A program made the translations under genes and the position numbers. The notes beneath the pieces were generated by a model that ran no database searches, had not been told where the DNA came from, and was given only the letters and a program-made list of their open reading frames with translations. From Clostridia bacterium (GTDB taxonomy: Bacteria; Bacillota; Clostridia; RUG12999), in NCBI GenBank assembly GCA_045648785.1, contig JAZROP010000041.1, forward strand, positions 20,268 through 84,267: a stretch of DNA of 64,000 nucleotides. Reading direction: 5' to 3'. Shown in pieces: positions 12,521-45,383 of the stretch (position 1 is its first letter; each line of letters begins with the position of its first letter).

Positions 12521-12659
12521 TTCTTTGCGAAAGCAAAGCAAGGTTCCGGGGACCCATCGCAATCTTTGATTGCGTTAATGGGTCGGGTTGTTATTGCGAA
12601 AGCAAAGCAAGGTTCCGGGGACCCATCGCAATCTTTGATTGCGTTAATGGGTCGGGTTC
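12521..12659. repeat. two identical tandem copies (about 65 nt unit, 69-bp period) of a structured intergenic repeat between prfB and nfeD
   Basis: Unit TTGCGAAAGCAAAGCAAGGTTCCGGGGACCCATCGCAATCTTTGATTGCGTTAATGGGTCGGGTT occurs at about 12525-12589 and 12594-12658. It contains the hairpins TTGC-GAAA-GCAA and CCCAT-CGCAATC-TTT-GATTGCG-TTA-ATGGG. Confidence 0.8.
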
Positions 12660-13782
12660 TTATTTTTCCTTCAGATTGCCAAGACTTTGGCGTTTTAAGT
12701 ATTCATTTATAAAACCATCAATTTCTCCATCCATAACTGCACCAACATTACCCATTTCGTAATCTGTACGATGGTCTTTCACCATTGTATAAGGATGGAA
12801 AACATATGAACGAATCTGGCTACCCCAAGCAATATCCTTCATATTGCCCTTGATATCCTCAATTTTATCCATTTTTTCACGCTCAGCTATTTCCAGAAGC
12901 TTGGATTTAAGCATTTTCATACAGGTTTCTCTGTTCTGAATCTGTGAGCGTTCTGTCTGGCATGCAACTACAATTCCTGTAGGAATATGTGTAATTCTGA
13001 CGGCGGATTCGGTTTTATTAACATGCTGACCGCCTGCACCACTGGAACGATAGGTATCTACCTTTAAATCTTCGGTGCGAATTGTAATTTCGATATCATC
13101 ATCAAACTCGGGCATAACATCAAGTGATGCAAATGATGTGTGGCGTCTGCCCGAAGCATCAAATGGTGAAATGCGAACAAGTCTGTGAACGCCCTTTTCA
13201 GTTTTTGCATATCCGTAAACATTTGTGCCTGAAATAAGCATTGTAACACTTTTAACACCGGCATCATCGCCATCTAAAATATCAAGGATTTTTGTTTCAA
13301 AGCCGCGTCTTTCAGCCCATCTGAGATACATTCTCATGAGCATTTGCACCCAATCCTGTGCCTCGGTTCCGCCAGCGCCTGCATGAAGTGACAAAATTGC
13401 GTTGTTTTTGTCATATGGACCGGTAAGTAGGGTATCAAGACGCATTTTTTCATAATTTTCAGTTAAGTTTCGGCAGCCTGAAATAATTTCTTCTGCCATA
13501 TTTGTATCATTTTCCTCGTTTGCCATATCAATCAGGAGAAGTAAATCTTCCCGCTCTGTGCAAAGAGATTCATATGATAAGATTTTTTCTTTAAGTGCTT
13601 TTGTTTTGCGGAGCACTTTTCCTGAGTTTTCCATATCATCCCAGAAATCGGGGGCAGTTGCCTGATTTTCCAAATCTGAAAGTTCGGATTTTAGTGCAGG
13701 CAAGTTAAAGTGAATCACCTAACTCTTTAATGCCGTCTTCAAGATTTCTTAAAGATAATCTGTATTCTTCAAGCTCTAACAT
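12660..13782 (-). CDS. prfB: peptide chain release factor 2, expressed through a programmed +1 frameshift
   Basis: ORF0 is ATG(13782) MLELEEYRLSLRNLEDGIKELGDSL, 25 codons, followed by UAA. The +1 frame continues NLPALKSELSDLEN...DFWDD...GGQHVNKTESAVRITHIPTGIVVACQTERSQ (SPF/GGQ motifs). The shift site is CTT TAA C with AGGTGAT three nt upstream. Confidence 0.9.
13700..13716 (-). other. prfB +1 recoding site (SD-like AGGUGAU, then CUU UAA C)
   Basis: Codon 25 CUU is followed by the in-frame stop UAA. The downstream body is in the +1 frame. Confidence 0.8.
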
Positions 13783-38725: not shown

Positions 38726-40111
<1,386 letters not shown>

Positions 40112-41638
40112 TTAGTCAATAAGGCTTTTTCCTGTCATTTCATCAGGCTGGTCTATGCCTAAAAGCTCAAGCATTGTTGGTGCAATGTCAGCAAGTCTGC
40201 CTTCGTGGAGGTTAACATCTTTGCCTATAACAACAAAAGGAACTTTGTTAGTTGTGTGGGCGGTGAAAGGACCGCCATCCTCGTCAACCATGCAGTCAGC
40301 ATTGCCGTGGTCGGCTGTAATAATAACCGTTCCGCCAAGGGCTGTAATTTTGTCAATAATTTTCTTTGAACATTCATCTACTGTTTCAACAGCTTTAACT
40401 GCAGCTTCCATAAATCCGGTGTGACCTACCATGTCACAGTTTGCAAAGTTCAAGATAATTACATCATAAAGGTCAGAGTCGATTCTCTTTATAGCCTCTT
40501 CTGTTACTTCATAGGCACTCATTTCGGGTTTTAGGTCATATGTTGCAACTTTAGGAGAGGGGATAAGTGCTCTGTCCTCACGGTCATAGACCTTTTCTTC
40601 ACCGCCGTTAAAGAAGAATGTTACATGCGCATATTTTTCGGTTTCGGCAATCCTAAGCTGTGAAAGTCCGTTTTTGCTTAGGATTTCACCAAGTGTGTTT
40701 GTAAGACTTTCGGGTTTGAAAGCAATTTCAACATTCGGCATTGTTGCATCATACTGAGTCATACAAACATAGTTGATTTTACTGAATTTTTCACGAGCAA
40801 AGCCGTCAAATTCAGAATCAACAAAGCATCTTGTGATTTCACGCGCTCTGTCAGGACGGAAGTTGAAGAAAATAAAACTGTCACCTTCATCAACAGTTGC
40901 ATTTTTGCAAACAACAGTAGGAATAACAAATTCGTCGTAAATTTCTTTTTCGTAAGAATCAAGAACTGCACCGAGCGCGGAATCTTTTTCTTCACCTCTG
41001 CCAAGGGCAATGGCGTTATATGCCAGACTTACTCTGTCCCATCTCTGGTCACGGTCCATTGCATAATATCTGCCCATAACGGTAGCTATTTTACCAACGC
41101 CAATTTCAGCCATCTTTTCTTCAAGCTGTTTTACATACATATCGCCTGAATTGGGAGGAACATCACGACCATCTAAAAGGGCATGAACATAAACTTCGGT
41201 AAGACCAAGCTTTTTAGCCATTTCTAAAAGTGCGTAAAGGTGTGTGTTATGACTGTGAACGCCACCATCTGAAAGTAAACCTGCAAGGTGGAGCTTTGTA
41301 CCGCTTTTTACACAGCTTTCCATAGCAGATTTAAGTACGGCGTTCTCAAAGAAATCACCATCGGTGATGGATTTTGTAATTCTTGTGAGTTCCTGATAAA
41401 CAATTCTGCCGGCACCGATGTTTGTGTGACCAACTTCGGAGTTGCCCATCTGACCGTCAGGCAGACCTACATCCATTCCGCTTGCACTTACAAGTGTGTT
41501 AGGATAATTTGCAAGATAATTATCCATATTGGGAGTAACTGCTCTATAAATAGCGTTGTTTTCTTTCGGGGGAGCAATGCCGTACCCGTCAAGAATCATT
41601 AGACATAAAGGTTTTTTCATTTTAGATTGTCCTTTCAA
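40112..41638 (-). CDS. gpmI: 2,3-bisphosphoglycerate-independent phosphoglycerate mutase
   Basis: Metal-dependent iPGM motifs LMILDGYG and ITADHGN; about 505 aa. Confidence 0.95.
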
Positions 41639-41642
41639 GTTA

Positions 41643-41665
41643 AAAGGGCGAGTAAATCGCCCTTT
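41643..41665 (-). terminator. intercistronic hairpin (partial terminator / attenuator) between tpiA and gpmI
   Basis: AAAGGGCGA-TTTAC-TCGCCCTTT, then UUAAC, with the gpmI RBS directly after. Confidence 0.5.
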
Positions 41666-41670
41666 GTATT

Positions 41671-42426
41671 TTATTTATTAGCAGCTTCAACGATGGGAGC
41701 GAATTTTTCTGCTACAAGTGAAGCACCACCGATAAGACCGCCATCAATATCTTCTTTTGCAAGAAGTTCAGCAGCATTGGAATCATTCATGCTGCCGCCG
41801 TACTGGATGATGAAATCCTGTGCACAGTGAGGACAGTAGAGGTCGCCGAGAATGTCTCTAATGCCTTTGCAAACCTCCTGAGCCTGGTCGGCTGTAGCGG
41901 TTTTGCCTGTACCGATAGCCCAGATTGGTTCGTATGCAATGATAACCTTTTTAGCATCTTCAGCATCAATGCCTGCAAATGCTTTTTTAATCTGAATAGC
42001 AATCAGGTCCATTGTAATGCCTGCTTCTCTTTCCTCTAAACTTTCACCAACACAAACGATTGGGAGAAGTCCTTTTTCAAGAGCTTTTTTAGTTTTAAGG
42101 TTAACAGTTTCGTCTGTTTCTGCAAAATACTGGCGTCTTTCGGAATGGCCGATGATAACATATTCAACACCAATATCCTTAAGCATATCAGCACTTACTT
42201 CGCCTGTGAATGCGCCCTTATCTTCGAAATGAAGATTTTCAGCACCGATTTTTACATGTGTGCCTGTAGCAGCTTTAACTGCTTCAGTAAGACAAACATA
42301 AGGTGTGCAGCAAACAACGGTGCATGTCGCACCTTTTGTAGCAGCTTCAACTTCCTTGATAAAACCAAATGTTTCAGAGGGAAGTTTATTCATTTTCCAA
42401 TTACCTGCAATAACTTTTGTTCTCAT
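41671..42426 (-). CDS. tpiA: triosephosphate isomerase
   Basis: [15 protein letters not shown] and GGASLV motifs. Confidence 0.97.
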
Positions 42427-42480
42427 AATATATTAGTGATTCCTTTCCTGTGATTAATGAATAAAAAGAGATTACAAAAC

Positions 42481-42548
42481 AATTCTTGCGCAAGCAAGGT
42501 TCCGGCTTTTCCCGATCTCAATCTGTGATTGCGTAAGCGGAGCAGATT
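42481..42548. repeat. diverged third copy of the structured intergenic repeat (pgk-tpiA spacer)
   Basis: AATTCTTGCGCAAGCAAGGTTCCGG...CAATCTGTGATTGCGT shares the 5' flank AATTCTT, the core GCAAGCAAGGTTCCGG and the CAATCT-N-TGATTGCGT hairpin with the 12.5-kb copies. Confidence 0.6.
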
Positions 42549-42549
42549 C

Positions 42550-43737
42550 TTACTTTTCCTGAAGACAAGCAATTCCGGGAAGTTCAAGTCCTTCAAGGAA
42601 TTCAAGTGATGCGCCGCCACCTGTGGAAATGTGGCTCATTTTATCGCCAAGACCGAGAACTTCAACTGCAGCTGCAGAGTCACCACCACCGATTACTGTG
42701 ATAGCGTCTGTTTCTGCACAAGCATTAGCGATTGCAGTTGTACCTGCGGCAAAGTTGGACATTTCAAATACGCCCATAGGTCCGTTCCAAACAATTGTTT
42801 TAGCTTCTTTTACAGCCGCGCTGAAAAGTTCAACTGTTTTAGGACCAATATCAAGACCCATCCAGCCGTCAGGAATTTTGTTTTCATCTACTAAATCTCT
42901 GTTTGCGTCATTATCGTATTTATCTGCTATAACTGTATCAACAGGGAGAAGAAGTTTAACTCCTTTTTCTTTAGCTTTTTCGATGATTTCGAGGCAGTAT
43001 CCGAGTCTTTCTTCGTCACAGAGGGAGTTACCGATGCTGCCGCCCTGAGCTTTTGTGAATGTGTAAGCCATACCGCCGCCGATGATGAGGCTATCAACTT
43101 TATCAAGCAGAGAGTTGATAACACCGATTTTGTCTTTAACTTTCGCACCGCCGAGGATAGCGAGGAAAGGTCTTTCGGGGTTAGCTACCGCACTGCCGAG
43201 GAATTTGATTTCCTTCTGAATGAGGTAACCAGAAACTGCAGGGAGATAATCTGCAACACCTGCTGTTGAAGCGTGAGCTCTGTGTGCTGTACCGAAAGCG
43301 TCATTTACAAAGATTTCAGCAAAGTCAGCAAGTGCTTTTGCAAAAGCAGGGTCGTTCTTTTCTTCTTCTGCGTGGAAACGAACATTTTCAAGAAGGCATA
43401 CATCGCCGTCTTTTAAAGCGGCAACTGCAGCTTTTGCGCTATCGCCAATAACATCTTCAGCCATCACAACATCTTTGCCGAGGTGTTCGGAAAGTCTTTT
43501 TGCAACGGGAGCAAGAGAATATTTCATATTGAATTCGCCCTTGGGTCTGCCCATGTGTGAGCAAAGTATAACTTTTGCACCATTTTCAACCAGATATTTT
43601 ATCGTGGGAAGAGCACCAACAATTCTGTTTTCGTCAACAATGTTTTTATTTTCATCAAGAGGTACATTAAAGTCACATCTTACGAGGACTTTTTTTCCAG
43701 CAACGGAAATGTCTTCAATAGTTTTTTTGTTTAACAT
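42550..43737 (-). CDS. pgk: phosphoglycerate kinase
   Basis: RCDFNVP, the hinge region and the C-terminal GGGASLE motif. Confidence 0.97.
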
Positions 43738-43770
43738 ATTTTTCCACTCCTATTTTTTATTTTTGTTATT

Positions 43771-43799
43771 ATTTTACATCAAATTCTTATAATTTGCAA
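43771..43799 (-). promoter_or_regulatory. promoter for pgk
   Basis: Minus-strand TTGCAA - 17 nt - TAAAAT about 45 nt upstream of the pgk ATG. No gapA or cggR precedes pgk. Confidence 0.5.
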
Positions 43800-43886
43800 G
43801 TCTAAATATATAATTTATAATATTTTACAAAATTTATCCAACAAAATATAAATTGTATGTTATTTTTGCCTAATTTATTATTTTTA

Positions 43887-43915
43887 TTGAAAAAAAGATT
43901 GATTTGTGATAAAAT
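43887..43915 (+). promoter_or_regulatory. promoter (TTGAAA - 17 nt - TGaTAAAAT, extended -10) reading into the repeat array and AEC transporter unit
   Basis: Its motifs are seen directly. The transcript would begin at a GAGTTTGC-AGA-GCAAACTC hairpin (43916-43934). Confidence 0.5.
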
Positions 43916-43930
43916 GAGTTTGCAGAGCAA

Positions 43931-44100
43931 ACTCAATGAATTGCCTGACGGCGTGAATTGAAATCTGCGGTTTCATGAATTTAGCCTTGCGGCTCATGAA
44001 TTGCACTTCATGCATTATAAAGGCAATTCAATTCATGTTGCGTTAGCAACAATTCATGGCTTTAGCCAATTCATGACAACGGTAGTTGTCAATTCATAAA
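43931..44100. repeat. phased array of nine 9-nt modules ((T)CATGAATTG x5, then inverted CAATTCATG(A) x4) at roughly 20-bp spacing
   Basis: Modules at 43935, 43953, 43973, 43994, 44008 in the forward orientation and 44024, 44049, 44068, 44090 in the reverse orientation. Spacers contain small hairpins (GTTGC-GTTA-GCAAC, ACAAC-GGTAG-TTGT). Confidence 0.8.
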
Positions 44101-44122
44101 ATGGACAAAAGATATGATGTAG

Positions 44123-44452
44123 ATGGAACTATTGAAAACTGCTGTAAAACAGCCGCTTATTATAAATCAGCTTCAATTTTCTGTAACAGAGGCAGGTATG
44201 GTAACTTCGGGAAATCCGTTTCAATATGGATTTTTTAAGGGCACTTTCTTAGATAATGATGAATTTCCTGAACTTAATGAAAAACTTGCAGAAATCGGAG
44301 AAAAGCATGGTCTTACCAAAACAGGAGTTGCAGCAGCGCAGGTCATACGCCTCCGTGATAACAGCCTAAATTGCCAAAATGTGAAAAGTTTGAGAAAAAT
44401 ATCTTCGATGATTGAGAGTTTTAGAGAGGTAATCAAATATGGAAAGTTTTAA
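44123..44452 (+). pseudogene. probable C-terminal fragment of an aldo/keto reductase
   Basis: KLAEIGEKHGLTKTGVAAAQVIRL resembles the AKR C-terminal block KLAPIAEKHNV...VLAW. The N-terminal 60 to 70 percent is missing and the array abuts the 5' end. Confidence 0.35.
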
Positions 44453-45383
44453 TTTGTCATTTAATGCTATTGCACCAATTTTTATTCTGATGCTTTTAGG
44501 TTATTATCTTAAAAGAATCAAAGTGGTGGACAAACGAGGGTTTGGTGCCATAAATAAATTGGTATTCAAGGTTTTTTTGCCTGTTCTTTTGTTTTACAAT
44601 ATATACAAAACGGATGTTGGAAATGTTTTTGATGTTAAACTTGTCGTATTTACGATAGTTTGCGTTATTTTTGTTTTTGTGGCAGGCTATTTTGCAGCAC
44701 TTGTATTTACAAAGAATAATGCAAAAAGAGGAGTTATGCTGCAAGGTTTTTTTAGGTCCAATTTTGCGATATTGGGAGTGCCTCTTGTGGGTTATATTTG
44801 CGGCGATAATTCTGGCGGATTGGCATCTATGATGGTTGCGGTGGTTATCCCGGTATTTAACACCCTTGCGGTGATAGCTCTCGAAAGATTTAGGGGAGGG
44901 AGCAGTAAGCTGAATTTGCTGCGGTTGATAAAAGGAATAATTACAAATCCGCTCATTATTGGATGTCTGACGGGACTTGTATTTTTCCTGATTGATATAA
45001 AATTGCCTGCAATACTTGAAAAATCGGTAAAAGATATTTCGTCAATAGCAACCCCGTTGTCGATAATTGCTCTTGGCTCGGAATTTGAATTTTCAGCGGT
45101 TAAAGAAAGTGTTAAAGAACTTGTTATAACAGTAAGCGCACGACTTGTATTCGTACCCATGATTATACTGCTGGCAGCTGTCTTGAACGGTTTTTCAGGA
45201 GAAGCACTTGCTTGCATACTTGTTACTTTTGGCTCTCCGGTAGCAGTATCGTCTTTTGCTATGGCGCAACAAATGGATGGAGATGAGCAGCTTGCGGCAC
45301 AGCTTGTTGTTATGTCGTCAGCATTTTGTCTTATTACATTGTTTGGATGGATTTTTTTGCTTAGCTATCTTAATTTGTTTTAA
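44439..45383 (+). CDS. AEC-family transporter (auxin efflux carrier / malate-permease-like)
   Basis: About 10 TM helices with a two-repeat architecture, 314 aa. Confidence 0.8.
   Translation: MESFNLSFNAIAPIFILMLLGYYLKRIKVVDKRGFGAINKLVFKVFLPVLLFYNIYKTDVGNVFDVKLVVFTIVCVIFVFVAGYFAALVFTKNNAKRGVMLQGFFRSNFAILGVPLVGYICGDNSGGLASMMVAVVIPVFNTLAVIALERFRGGSSKLNLLRLIKGIITNPLIIGCLTGLVFFLIDIKLPAILEKSVKDISSIATPLSIIALGSEFEFSAVKESVKELVITVSARLVFVPMIILLAAVLNGFSGEALACILVTFGSPVAVSSFAMAQQMDGDEQLAAQLVVMSSAFCLITLFGWIFLLSYLNLF

Follow-up and report, generated by a model that had tools for sequence, protein, structure and literature searches.

The stretch of DNA analysed here, referred to as the window, comprises 64,000 nucleotides (nt) of contig JAZROP010000041.1 from a Clostridia bacterium. 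Between the phosphoglycerate kinase gene, pgk, and a divergently oriented gene for an AEC-family transporter lies an array of short repeats, followed by a fragment of an aldo/keto reductase (AKR) gene. Nine near-matches to CATGAATTG/CAATTCATG are packed into 170 bp of the 64-kb window. Allowing at most one mismatch, 22 hits were found window-wide, 9 of which lie in the array, and the largest cluster in any 170 bp held 9 hits compared with 1-3 in 300 dinucleotide-preserving shuffles, well beyond chance. No 7-mer repeated more than four times within 220 bp was found elsewhere in the 64 kb. The comparisons reported below indicate that the array is very probably an orphan member of a Gut-1-like family of elements associated with genes for a four-helix-bundle (4HB) protein.

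The array is composed of two inverted arms of four modules, each 8 nt long, and its orientation flips once (Table 1). A preliminary description of the window had reported a nine-module inverted repeat; the nine near-matches and the compound repeat are real, but the layout is 4 + 4. The fifth forward module of that description, TCATGCATT at 44008, forms instead the 3' half of the small central hairpin and leads into CATT...GGCAATT, and its reverse module at 44024 is an overlapping half-module (GGCAATT-CAATTCAT). The linker of the window reads (C)AUGAAUUG in the 5' arm and CAAUUCAU(G) in the 3' arm. Spacers between like-oriented modules are 8-14-nt palindromes that form small hairpins closed by the module-flanking G and C, and folding placed such a hairpin in every spacer, as had been proposed. 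The array was also correctly set apart from CRISPR, with repeats of 8-9 nt and palindromic spacers versus CRISPR repeats of ~23-50 nt and unique spacers. Module spacing is 17-23 nt in the window and is dictated by hairpin length; the suggested face-of-helix phasing on duplex DNA was not borne out, the spacing being variable and absorbed by covarying hairpins.

The predicted fold of the element reaches -68.1 kcal/mol (z = -4.8). Against shuffles, z for the two strands was -4.8 and -5.5, and both strands fold far better than shuffled sequence, which is to be expected of an inverted repeat. Three candidate features were considered and dropped. Kissing loops between 5'-arm and 3'-arm hairpins were rejected when the loops of the window, inspected by eye, proved not to be complementary; a divergent TATAAA promoter in the centre is not conserved in relatives; and ATAAAATG, an 8-nt direct repeat at both ends in the window that might have been a target-site duplication, coincides with the -10 box and the Shine-Dalgarno region and is missing from other copies.

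Table 1 Features of the array and its flanks, with positions counted from the first nucleotide of the window.
Feature	Position	Strand	Description
pgk, phosphoglycerate kinase	42550-43737	-	PF00162, E = 2.8e-168; divergent; context
Sigma-A-type promoter	43887-43915	+	-35 TTGAAA 43887-43892, 17-nt spacer, TG 43907-43908, TAAAAT 43910-43915
5' hairpin ('hp4 prime')	43916-43934	+	GAGTTTGC-AGA-GCAAACTC, 8 bp; first structure of the predicted transcript
5' arm	43936-44003	+	Four modules, three hairpins
Forward modules with flanking base	43935; 43952; 43974; 43995	+	AATGAATTG; CGTGAATTG; CATGAATTT; CATGAATTG, in this order; sequence reading
5'-arm modules	43936-43943; 43953-43960; 43975-43982; 43996-44003	+	ATGAATTG; GTGAATTG; ATGAATTT; ATGAATTG, in this order
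5'-arm hairpins	43944-43951; 43961-43973; 43983-43994	+	Folding
Centre	44004-44028	+	Small hairpin and linker CATTATAAAGGCAATT
Degenerate CACTTCATG	44004	+	Listed among the reverse near-matches
Central hairpin	44004-44012	+	CAC-TTC-ATG, weakened by A at 44010
Conserved linker	44013-44028	+	CATT-N-GGCAATT; shared centre of compound elements
3' arm	44029-44097	+	Four CAATTCAT modules, the reverse complement of the 5'-arm modules
Reverse modules	44029; 44050; 44067; 44090	+	CAATTCATG at the first three, CAATTCATA at 44090; sequence reading
3'-arm modules CAATTCAT	44029-44036; 44050-44057; 44067-44074; 44090-44097	+	
3'-arm hairpins	44038-44049; 44059-44066; 44076-44089	+	Each after module and G; folding
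Relic of 4HB translation start	44098-44122	+	GGAC 44103-44106 (GGAG in relatives), ATG 44114-44116, ATG, TAG 44120-44122
Truncated aldo/keto reductase open reading frame	44123-44452	+	109 aa; homologues with PF00248, named aldo/keto reductase; context
AEC-family (Mem_trans) transporter	44439-45383	+	PF03547, E = 1.6e-37; context

Clusters of the module occur elsewhere, and massively so. A scan of 185,579 species genomes for three CAATTCAT modules at 9-17-nt gaps returned at least 120 stretches matching the pattern, for which a rough back-of-envelope estimate of the chance expectation is well under one. Genuine hits came from metagenome-assembled genomes (MAGs) of gut and rumen Clostridia (Oscillospiraceae, Acutalibacteraceae, Christensenellales), and the same architecture was present at more than 100 Clostridia MAG loci; L-numbers below are labels of the loci or contigs compared. 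Hits in Terriglobia, Chitinophagaceae, Bacteroidaceae, Collimonas and other non-Clostridial sources proved to be simple perfect tandem repeats in which the 8-mer occurs by chance, and they were excluded. Of 54 hits on viral or (pro)phage contigs, 5 were genuine copies and the other 49, many from giant-virus MAGs, were likewise discarded. Judged by these sequence comparisons, the array is not local decay but a member of a dispersed family.

The dominant form of the family is that of the window, with four ATGAATTG modules, an asymmetric centre and four CAATTCAT modules. Exactly four modules are present in 111 of 157 arms, and module spacing across the family is 16-25 nt. Lone arms without a partner are frequent (77/155), and other arm pairings occur too. 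The asymmetric centre, ATGAATTG-hairpin-CATT..GGCAATT-CAATTCAT, is captured by a regular expression common to at least 23 compound elements. The window element matches this expression and aligns with 11 others at 80% mean column identity. Several copies may be found in one MAG (L012 with L042; L007, L065 and L075; L074 with L076), and in the pair L012 and L042 the stems are common while the loops differ. The flanking genes are diverse, and those downstream differ by locus, encoding 4HB, RecO, a LysR-type regulator or hypothetical proteins. On the minus strand of L059 (141-4610), four near-identical lone arms, each with a conserved flanking hairpin, split five small unrelated open reading frames (ORFs) at ~1-kb intervals on the coding strand, an arrangement that resembles a cassette array.

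The sigma-A promoter noted earlier was recovered by a consensus scan, with 10/12 consensus matches plus an extended -10 TG, and is directed into the element. A near-consensus promoter, TTGACA/TTGnnn-17-TGnTATAAT, stands at the same position before the terminal hairpin in ten other loci of the window's subfamily (L004, L012, L042, L061, L064, L073, L080, L091, L109 and L116); that of L080 is TTGACA-17-TATAAT with TG. The 8-bp leader hairpin that follows was confirmed by folding, and double-sided changes occur in 8 of its 9 aligned pairs among 12 relatives. On the minus strand a scan gave a terminator-like hit, formed by the 5' hairpin and the TTTTAT after it. In four loci (L083, L106, L026, L096) the 3'-terminal codons of an rlmD/RumA-like methyltransferase gene (...HVESVVCL...) make up the left half of the terminal hairpin, and the noncoding right half changes in step with the codons. 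The asymmetric centre and the terminal hairpin make the element asymmetric and give it a polarity, with which the direction of flanking genes correlates: with the element oriented from its promoter, the downstream gene was co-oriented in 19/24 cases of the window's subfamily, and lone arms favour sites behind a gene reading in, in the ATGAATTG sense (48 vs 21, p = 0.0016). These results suggest that the element is transcribed from an upstream promoter conserved in relatives.

Conservation of the hairpins was assessed on a MAFFT alignment of 12 compound elements by explicit pair counting, with 500 shuffles and slid alignments as controls. Pairing was retained in 93.6% of cells, and 23 pairs showed double-sided changes, all within local hairpins; none of the 500 shuffles scored as high, and the slid controls gave 3-11. 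Covariation and folding both bear out the structured element proposed earlier. Among 292 unique spacers, some 90% form end-anchored hairpins of unrelated sequence, and in a wider set such hairpins were found in 441/712 spacers compared with 43/712 after shuffling. The helices that modules could form between arms are invariant within the window's class or change only to G.U; in L116 a G-C to A-U double change links the fourth module and the GGCAATT centre. Purifying selection acts on the stems and the modules, whereas the loops drift.

An ORF search of the loci identified a gene for a protein of ~118 aa (MKENxLVDLSKQFAVDIVNLC...) at 12 of ~100 loci ascertained by the motif. In 11 of the 12 it starts 15-25 nt past the last module or lies between the arms, as in L076; in L032 it lies ~1 kb from a CAATTCAT-type array. 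The protein belongs to PF05635, '23S rRNA-intervening sequence protein' (E = 1e-23), and to TIGR02436, 'four helix bundle protein' (E = 8e-27). PF05635 proteins are very abundant: more than 8000 clusters were among the matches listed, and we know of no function for these proteins outside diversity-generating retroelements (DGRs). The nearest solved structure, 2RLD, was deposited with five chains. S23p, of the same family, is a toroidal homopentamer (PMC4990558), and the DGR protein Avd, also a pentamer, binds an RNA stem-loop whose flipped-out bases lodge in inter-protomer crevices, where the same residues from different protomers contact them (10.1101/2023.10.23.563531).

The association was then approached from the protein side. 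Scanning metagenomes with the protein alignment yielded 80 loci of 51-86% identity, 58 of them with at least 300 nt of upstream sequence. A 7-mer repeated at least four times (both strands) was present in the 320 nt before the 4HB ORF at 49/58 loci (84%), compared with 0/58 shuffled sequences and 0/30 distal windows, and the commonest pattern was four copies in one orientation and then four in the opposite one. The closest protein relatives use CAATTCAT modules. More distant relatives have the same architecture with other modules: AGCTAAATT/AATTTAGCT, GTGAAATA/TATTTCAC, ATGAAATA/TATTTCAT, ATGATAT/ATATCAT and AGTTATATT/AATATAACT. On a neighbour-joining tree, module class (AATTCAT, ATGAAAT/GTGAAAT, AATTTAGCT, ATATCAT, AGTTATA) tracks protein clade, and the arms are mutually complementary in every class. 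The eight modules of one array agree while the intervening hairpins differ, which makes homogenisation by recombination unlikely and a shared reader of the modules the simplest explanation. The link to PF05635 genes and the kinship with Gut-1 were both missed in the preliminary description. We found no paper that connects PF05635 with such arrays, and a literature search for the 9-mers returned primer sequences only.

Single arms of the GTGAAAT/ATGAAAT classes are the Rfam RNA motif Gut-1 (RF01706), scoring 50-89 bits against a gathering threshold of 50 bits. Gut-1 hits lie within ~200 nt upstream of a 4HB ORF in at least 20 loci, frequently as a plus-strand hit followed by a minus-strand hit, which are the two arms. 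The Rfam consensus has four UGAAAU linkers and three hairpins. The arms of the window are built in the same way, with three short hairpins that covary and four conserved single-stranded linkers. The model itself did not detect them: no Gut-1 hit was found in positions 43000-45000 of the window even at E <= 10, the whole window searched against Rfam at gathering score gave neither Gut-1 nor anything else relevant, and relatives of the AATTCAT class gave no Gut-1 hit even at E <= 10. The Gut-1 linker GUGAAAU is absent from the modules of the window, and the UGAA core alone is common to both.

Gut-1 was originally rated 'RNA: certainly' and not cis-regulatory, from the human gut only and with 43 representatives (Weinberg et al. 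2010, PMC2864571); it was described without function or gene context, as a candidate stand-alone sRNA, and is not known to have been given a function since. Both kinds of element come from gut Clostridia, alternate four single-stranded linkers of ~7 nt containing UGAA (GUGAAAU in Gut-1) with three variable, covarying hairpins, and occur in a 4 + 4 inverted layout directly upstream of 4HB genes. They differ in that the module of the window, AUGAAUUG, lies outside the detection of the Rfam model, and the published description has neither the compound inverted form nor the link to PF05635. The ATGAAAT/GTGAAAT Gut-1/4HB units are nearly always preceded by a terminator and by one or two tRNA genes. 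In such tRNA-preceded units (L203, L208, L213, L219, L237, L240, L241, L246, L247, L250, L255 and others; ~100-450 nt upstream of the ORF) a strong promoter with an extended -10 separates the last module from the 4HB ORF.

Genes for 4HB proteins also occur beside repeats in other phyla. A tblastn search against plasmids placed them in 31 records. In the 12 plasmid loci inspected (L257-L268; Monoglobus, Treponema, Nostoc, Bernardetia, Chlorohelix, Euhalothece, Anabaena, Planktothrix, Chondrinema, Pseudanabaena and Gloeocapsa), the 4HB genes are small co-oriented inserts in operons such as hsdS/hsdR, cas2/cas1, RND adaptor/permease and DUF1156/HEPN. Tandem 6-7-nt repeats flank 8 of the 12, and many of these loci have forward copies on one side and reverse complements on the other; two GATTTTA and three TAAAATC hug the ORF in Gloeocapsa. 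The cyanobacterial heptamers beside 4HB genes resemble STRR repeats, and no paper linking cyanobacterial repeats to 4HB genes was found. Some database gene calls fuse PF05958 with PF05635. In a large CRISPR-discovery study, '23S rRNA IVP' appears among the domains newly tied to CRISPR adaptation modules (PMC10910872), a listing that fits the cas2-[4HB]-cas1 inserts in the Anabaena and Pseudanabaena plasmids. The Clostridia arrays, with hairpins as spacers, may be a more elaborate version of a general unit that combines repeats with a 4HB gene.

No 4HB gene was found anywhere in the 64-kb window. The end of the array matches L080 over 57 nt at 93% identity, through the last hairpin, the last module, the Shine-Dalgarno sequence, mutated in the window to GGAC from the GGAG of L080, and the ATG, where the match ends; the relic GGAC-N7-ATG at 44103-44116 is homologous to the L080 start region. 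Since the match stops at the ATG and AKR sequence follows, a single deletion would have removed the 4HB gene together with the 5' portion of the AKR gene. The junction therefore looks like a deletion, instead of the insertion or expansion proposed earlier, and the array appears to be a relic whose own gene was deleted and not a regulator designed for the AEC transporter. A Logan contig of a sister strain (L001) is 99.86% identical, with two differences in 1462 nt, both in the element or relic. At 44010 it has G for A, which restores the central hairpin, and at 44120 it has C for T, which turns TAG into CAG so that the ORF of the AKR fragment begins at the relic ATG; in the window the TAG separates the fragment from that start codon.

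The genes on either side were largely as first described. Both pgk and the AEC transporter gene were confirmed by Pfam, and the truncated AKR is supported by homologues with PF00248, although the 109-aa ORF had no direct hit in Pfam, NCBIfam or PDB. Homologues of the fragment (P0002-P0041, query 44123-44449) are mostly short Clostridia PF00248 proteins of 127-189 aa, several annotated 'partial', pointing either to a short AKR-like family or to recurrent truncation. The scan found no convincing terminator between the element and the AEC gene, which is probably read from the element's promoter. On the minus strand, pgk is the first gene of a glycolytic run (38768-43737), with no gap or cggR upstream; within the run pgk is Pfam-confirmed, and ORFs of 251, 508 and 429 aa are tpiA, gpmI and eno candidates by size and order only. 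Elsewhere in the window, 12525-12664 holds a 69-nt tandem duplication (2.0 copies, 98% identical) with the inverted repeat GACCCATCGCAATC...GATTGCG..ATGGGTC and no Rfam match.

In the model that we favour, the element's own promoter drives its transcription, and the RNA produced acts as a multivalent ligand of the 4HB ring. A single protomer, or a crevice between protomers, would recognise each single-stranded module, and the hairpins would serve as compact spacers; RNA, rather than DNA, would be the active form. Alternatively, the 5' arm may pair with the 3' arm to give a ladder of 8-bp helices and four-way junctions, and the complementary arm would be a competing partner. The last module lies 4-8 nt from the Shine-Dalgarno sequence in complete copies of the window's class, so that translational autoregulation of 4HB is possible there. 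In the window, the AKR relic and the AEC transporter may gain a promoter and a structured 5' leader from the orphan copy, which could be responsive in trans to a 4HB protein whose gene lies elsewhere in the genome. The protein-binding RNA suggested in the preliminary description is thus our preferred reading as well. That the arms are multivalent ligands of a 4HB pentamer seems to us about evenly balanced, or slightly less probable than that, and for the statement as a whole, an orphan copy of a dispersed 4HB element together with the binding model, we consider the case for and against to be equal.

Several observations weigh against this model. Adjacent DNA is inherited together, which contributes to the tree pattern and could partly account for it, an effect that computation alone cannot separate from specificity. 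The ATGAAAT/GTGAAAT classes have a strong promoter separating the array from the 4HB ORF, so that the 4HB mRNA does not in every case include the array. In a few loci (L181, L197) the modules beside the ORF have the opposite orientation, and some orphan copies, such as L036, are placed between a terminator and a promoter. Among 2105 stem pairs there were 15 G.U and 10 A.C; G.U pairs, tried as a strand discriminator, gave no signal, and the lack of a G.U excess is unusual for a structure selected on one RNA strand. The GCA/GAA/GNRA loops prefer the CAATTCAT strand in both arms, which for the 5' arm is the opposite of the predicted transcript. The lack of a G.U excess, the loop strand, the promoter placement, the opposite modules and some of the orphans together keep a role in single-stranded DNA (ssDNA) or at the DNA level alive. 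The modules would then be iteron- or operator-like sites for a DNA- or ssDNA-binding protein, possibly 4HB itself, acting on transcription, replication or recombination, with palindromic spacers that extrude in ssDNA. On both strands the stem pairs are nearly all Watson-Crick, the polarity of the loops goes with the orientation of the modules and not with the direction of transcription, and two large classes (ATGAAAT/GTGAAAT) have the array upstream of the 4HB promoter, abutting its -35. Sequences with GNA triloops, such as GCGAAGC and GCGCAGC, are classic examples of stable mini-hairpins in DNA. Phased binding to duplex DNA is nevertheless incompatible with a spacing of 16-25 bp, hairpins of 3-6 bp would not extrude from such DNA, and element polarity correlates with flanking-gene direction. 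The sister class is curated as 'RNA: certainly' (PMC2864571) and the homologue Avd binds RNA in a solved complex (10.1101/2023.10.23.563531). We regard a DNA-level function as quite unlikely.

A little less unlikely is a selfish insert resembling the 23S rRNA intervening sequence (IVS), with no specific protein recognition. The arms would serve only to form double-stranded RNA cut by host RNase III or another RNase, which would excise or insulate the 4HB gene from the host transcript, and orphans would be decayed remnants. The 23S IVS share the protein family, and RNase III excises them at the stem of their terminal inverted repeats (PMC4990558). The complementarity of the arms in every module class fits such an insert, as do ORFs lying between inverted arms (L076, L028, L182, L198) and the operon inserts of other phyla flanked by inverted arrays of short repeats. 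Pairing alone, however, demands neither four identical modules per arm nor intervening hairpins. Common 3'-arm variants such as CAAATCAT are uncompensated in the 5' arm, and half of all arms are alone. Helices of 8 bp broken by junctions are poor substrates of classical RNase III. It is improbable that the array is a purely selfish REP/BIME- or MITE-like repeat with 4HB as a passenger or unrelated neighbour. Multiple copies per MAG, genuine copies on (pro)phage contigs, diverse flanking genes and the break of the sister-strain Logan contig inside the array would suit such a repeat. Against it, no associated transposase or RAYT gene recurs nearby, target-site duplications were not seen at the boundaries inspected by eye, and selection acts on stems and modules while loops drift; arrays at 84% of protein-ascertained 4HB loci, with modules that track the clade, are unlike a chance neighbour. 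A ligand-sensing or factor-dependent leader (riboswitch or attenuator) of the AEC operon, suggested by the promoter-proximal position and the stable fold, is effectively refuted. The scan found no terminator/anti-terminator logic, the transporter is adjacent only because of the deletion, and downstream genes vary by locus, 4HB being the sole conserved one.

More generally, and only tentatively, arrays including Gut-1 may be sequence-specific multivalent ligands of pentameric S23p/Avd rings, with one module per protomer, co-evolution of protein and repeat, and a trans-acting network of orphans. If true, this would be the first function for the S23p family outside DGRs. It would extend to plain 6-7-nt arrays at PF05635 genes of cyanobacteria, spirochaetes, Bacteroidota and Chloroflexota, as well as to the heptamers that the Coxiella 23S IVS contains. 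Two orphans, a motif with 4 + 4 Gut-1-type arms and a protein family, become one testable protein-nucleic-acid system, in which arrays stand at 4HB genes and the module follows the clade. The results also account for a class of repeats at which assemblies of gut and rumen Clostridia break and from which neighbouring genes receive strong promoters.

The family can be compared with several known systems. The 23S IVS with an S23p ORF of Leptospira and Coxiella (PMC4990558) share PF05635, have inverted terminal repeats able to form a stem around or beside the ORF and are selfish and dispersed; in Coxiella the heptamer GACAGAT occurs three to four times before the S23p start codon (PMC4990558). The window family instead lies outside rRNA and has arms of modules and hairpins rather than a plain 28-bp stem. 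Its arms are usually both upstream of the ORF, and orphans outnumber ORF-bearing copies. The window element itself lies between pgk and the AKR/AEC genes and not at the IVS site (helix 25/45), and no rRNA was found in the window. REP/BIME repeats with RAYT are similarly dispersed intergenic palindromes, often in inverted pairs, whose units flank a small protein gene, are specific to a protein clade and are biased to the 3' side of genes. There, however, the protein is an HUH Y1 transposase and the hairpin is conserved, whereas in the present family a non-catalytic four-helix bundle stands in place of the transposase, and conservation lies in the linkers while the hairpins vary freely. The recurrent neighbour is PF05635 rather than an HUH Y1 gene, and the hairpin sequences are not conserved, unlike the GTAG-preceded palindrome of REPs. 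Compared with MITEs, no consistent direct repeat was seen at the boundaries of the copies inspected by eye, and no transposase recurs nearby. TRAP and the trp leader offer a mechanistic analogy only, namely a ring and equally oriented short repeats with unconserved spacers beside a ribosome-binding site; the fold is unrelated, and TRAP reads triplets with 2-3-nt spacers, whereas here binding is predicted to involve 7-8-nt repeats with hairpin spacers. Avd differs in that the elements described here have no adjacent reverse transcriptase or template and variable repeats, and offer many modules rather than one stem-loop. The Avd complex nevertheless pairs a homologous pentameric four-helix-bundle ring with a tetraloop-capped RNA stem-loop (10.1101/2023.10.23.563531).

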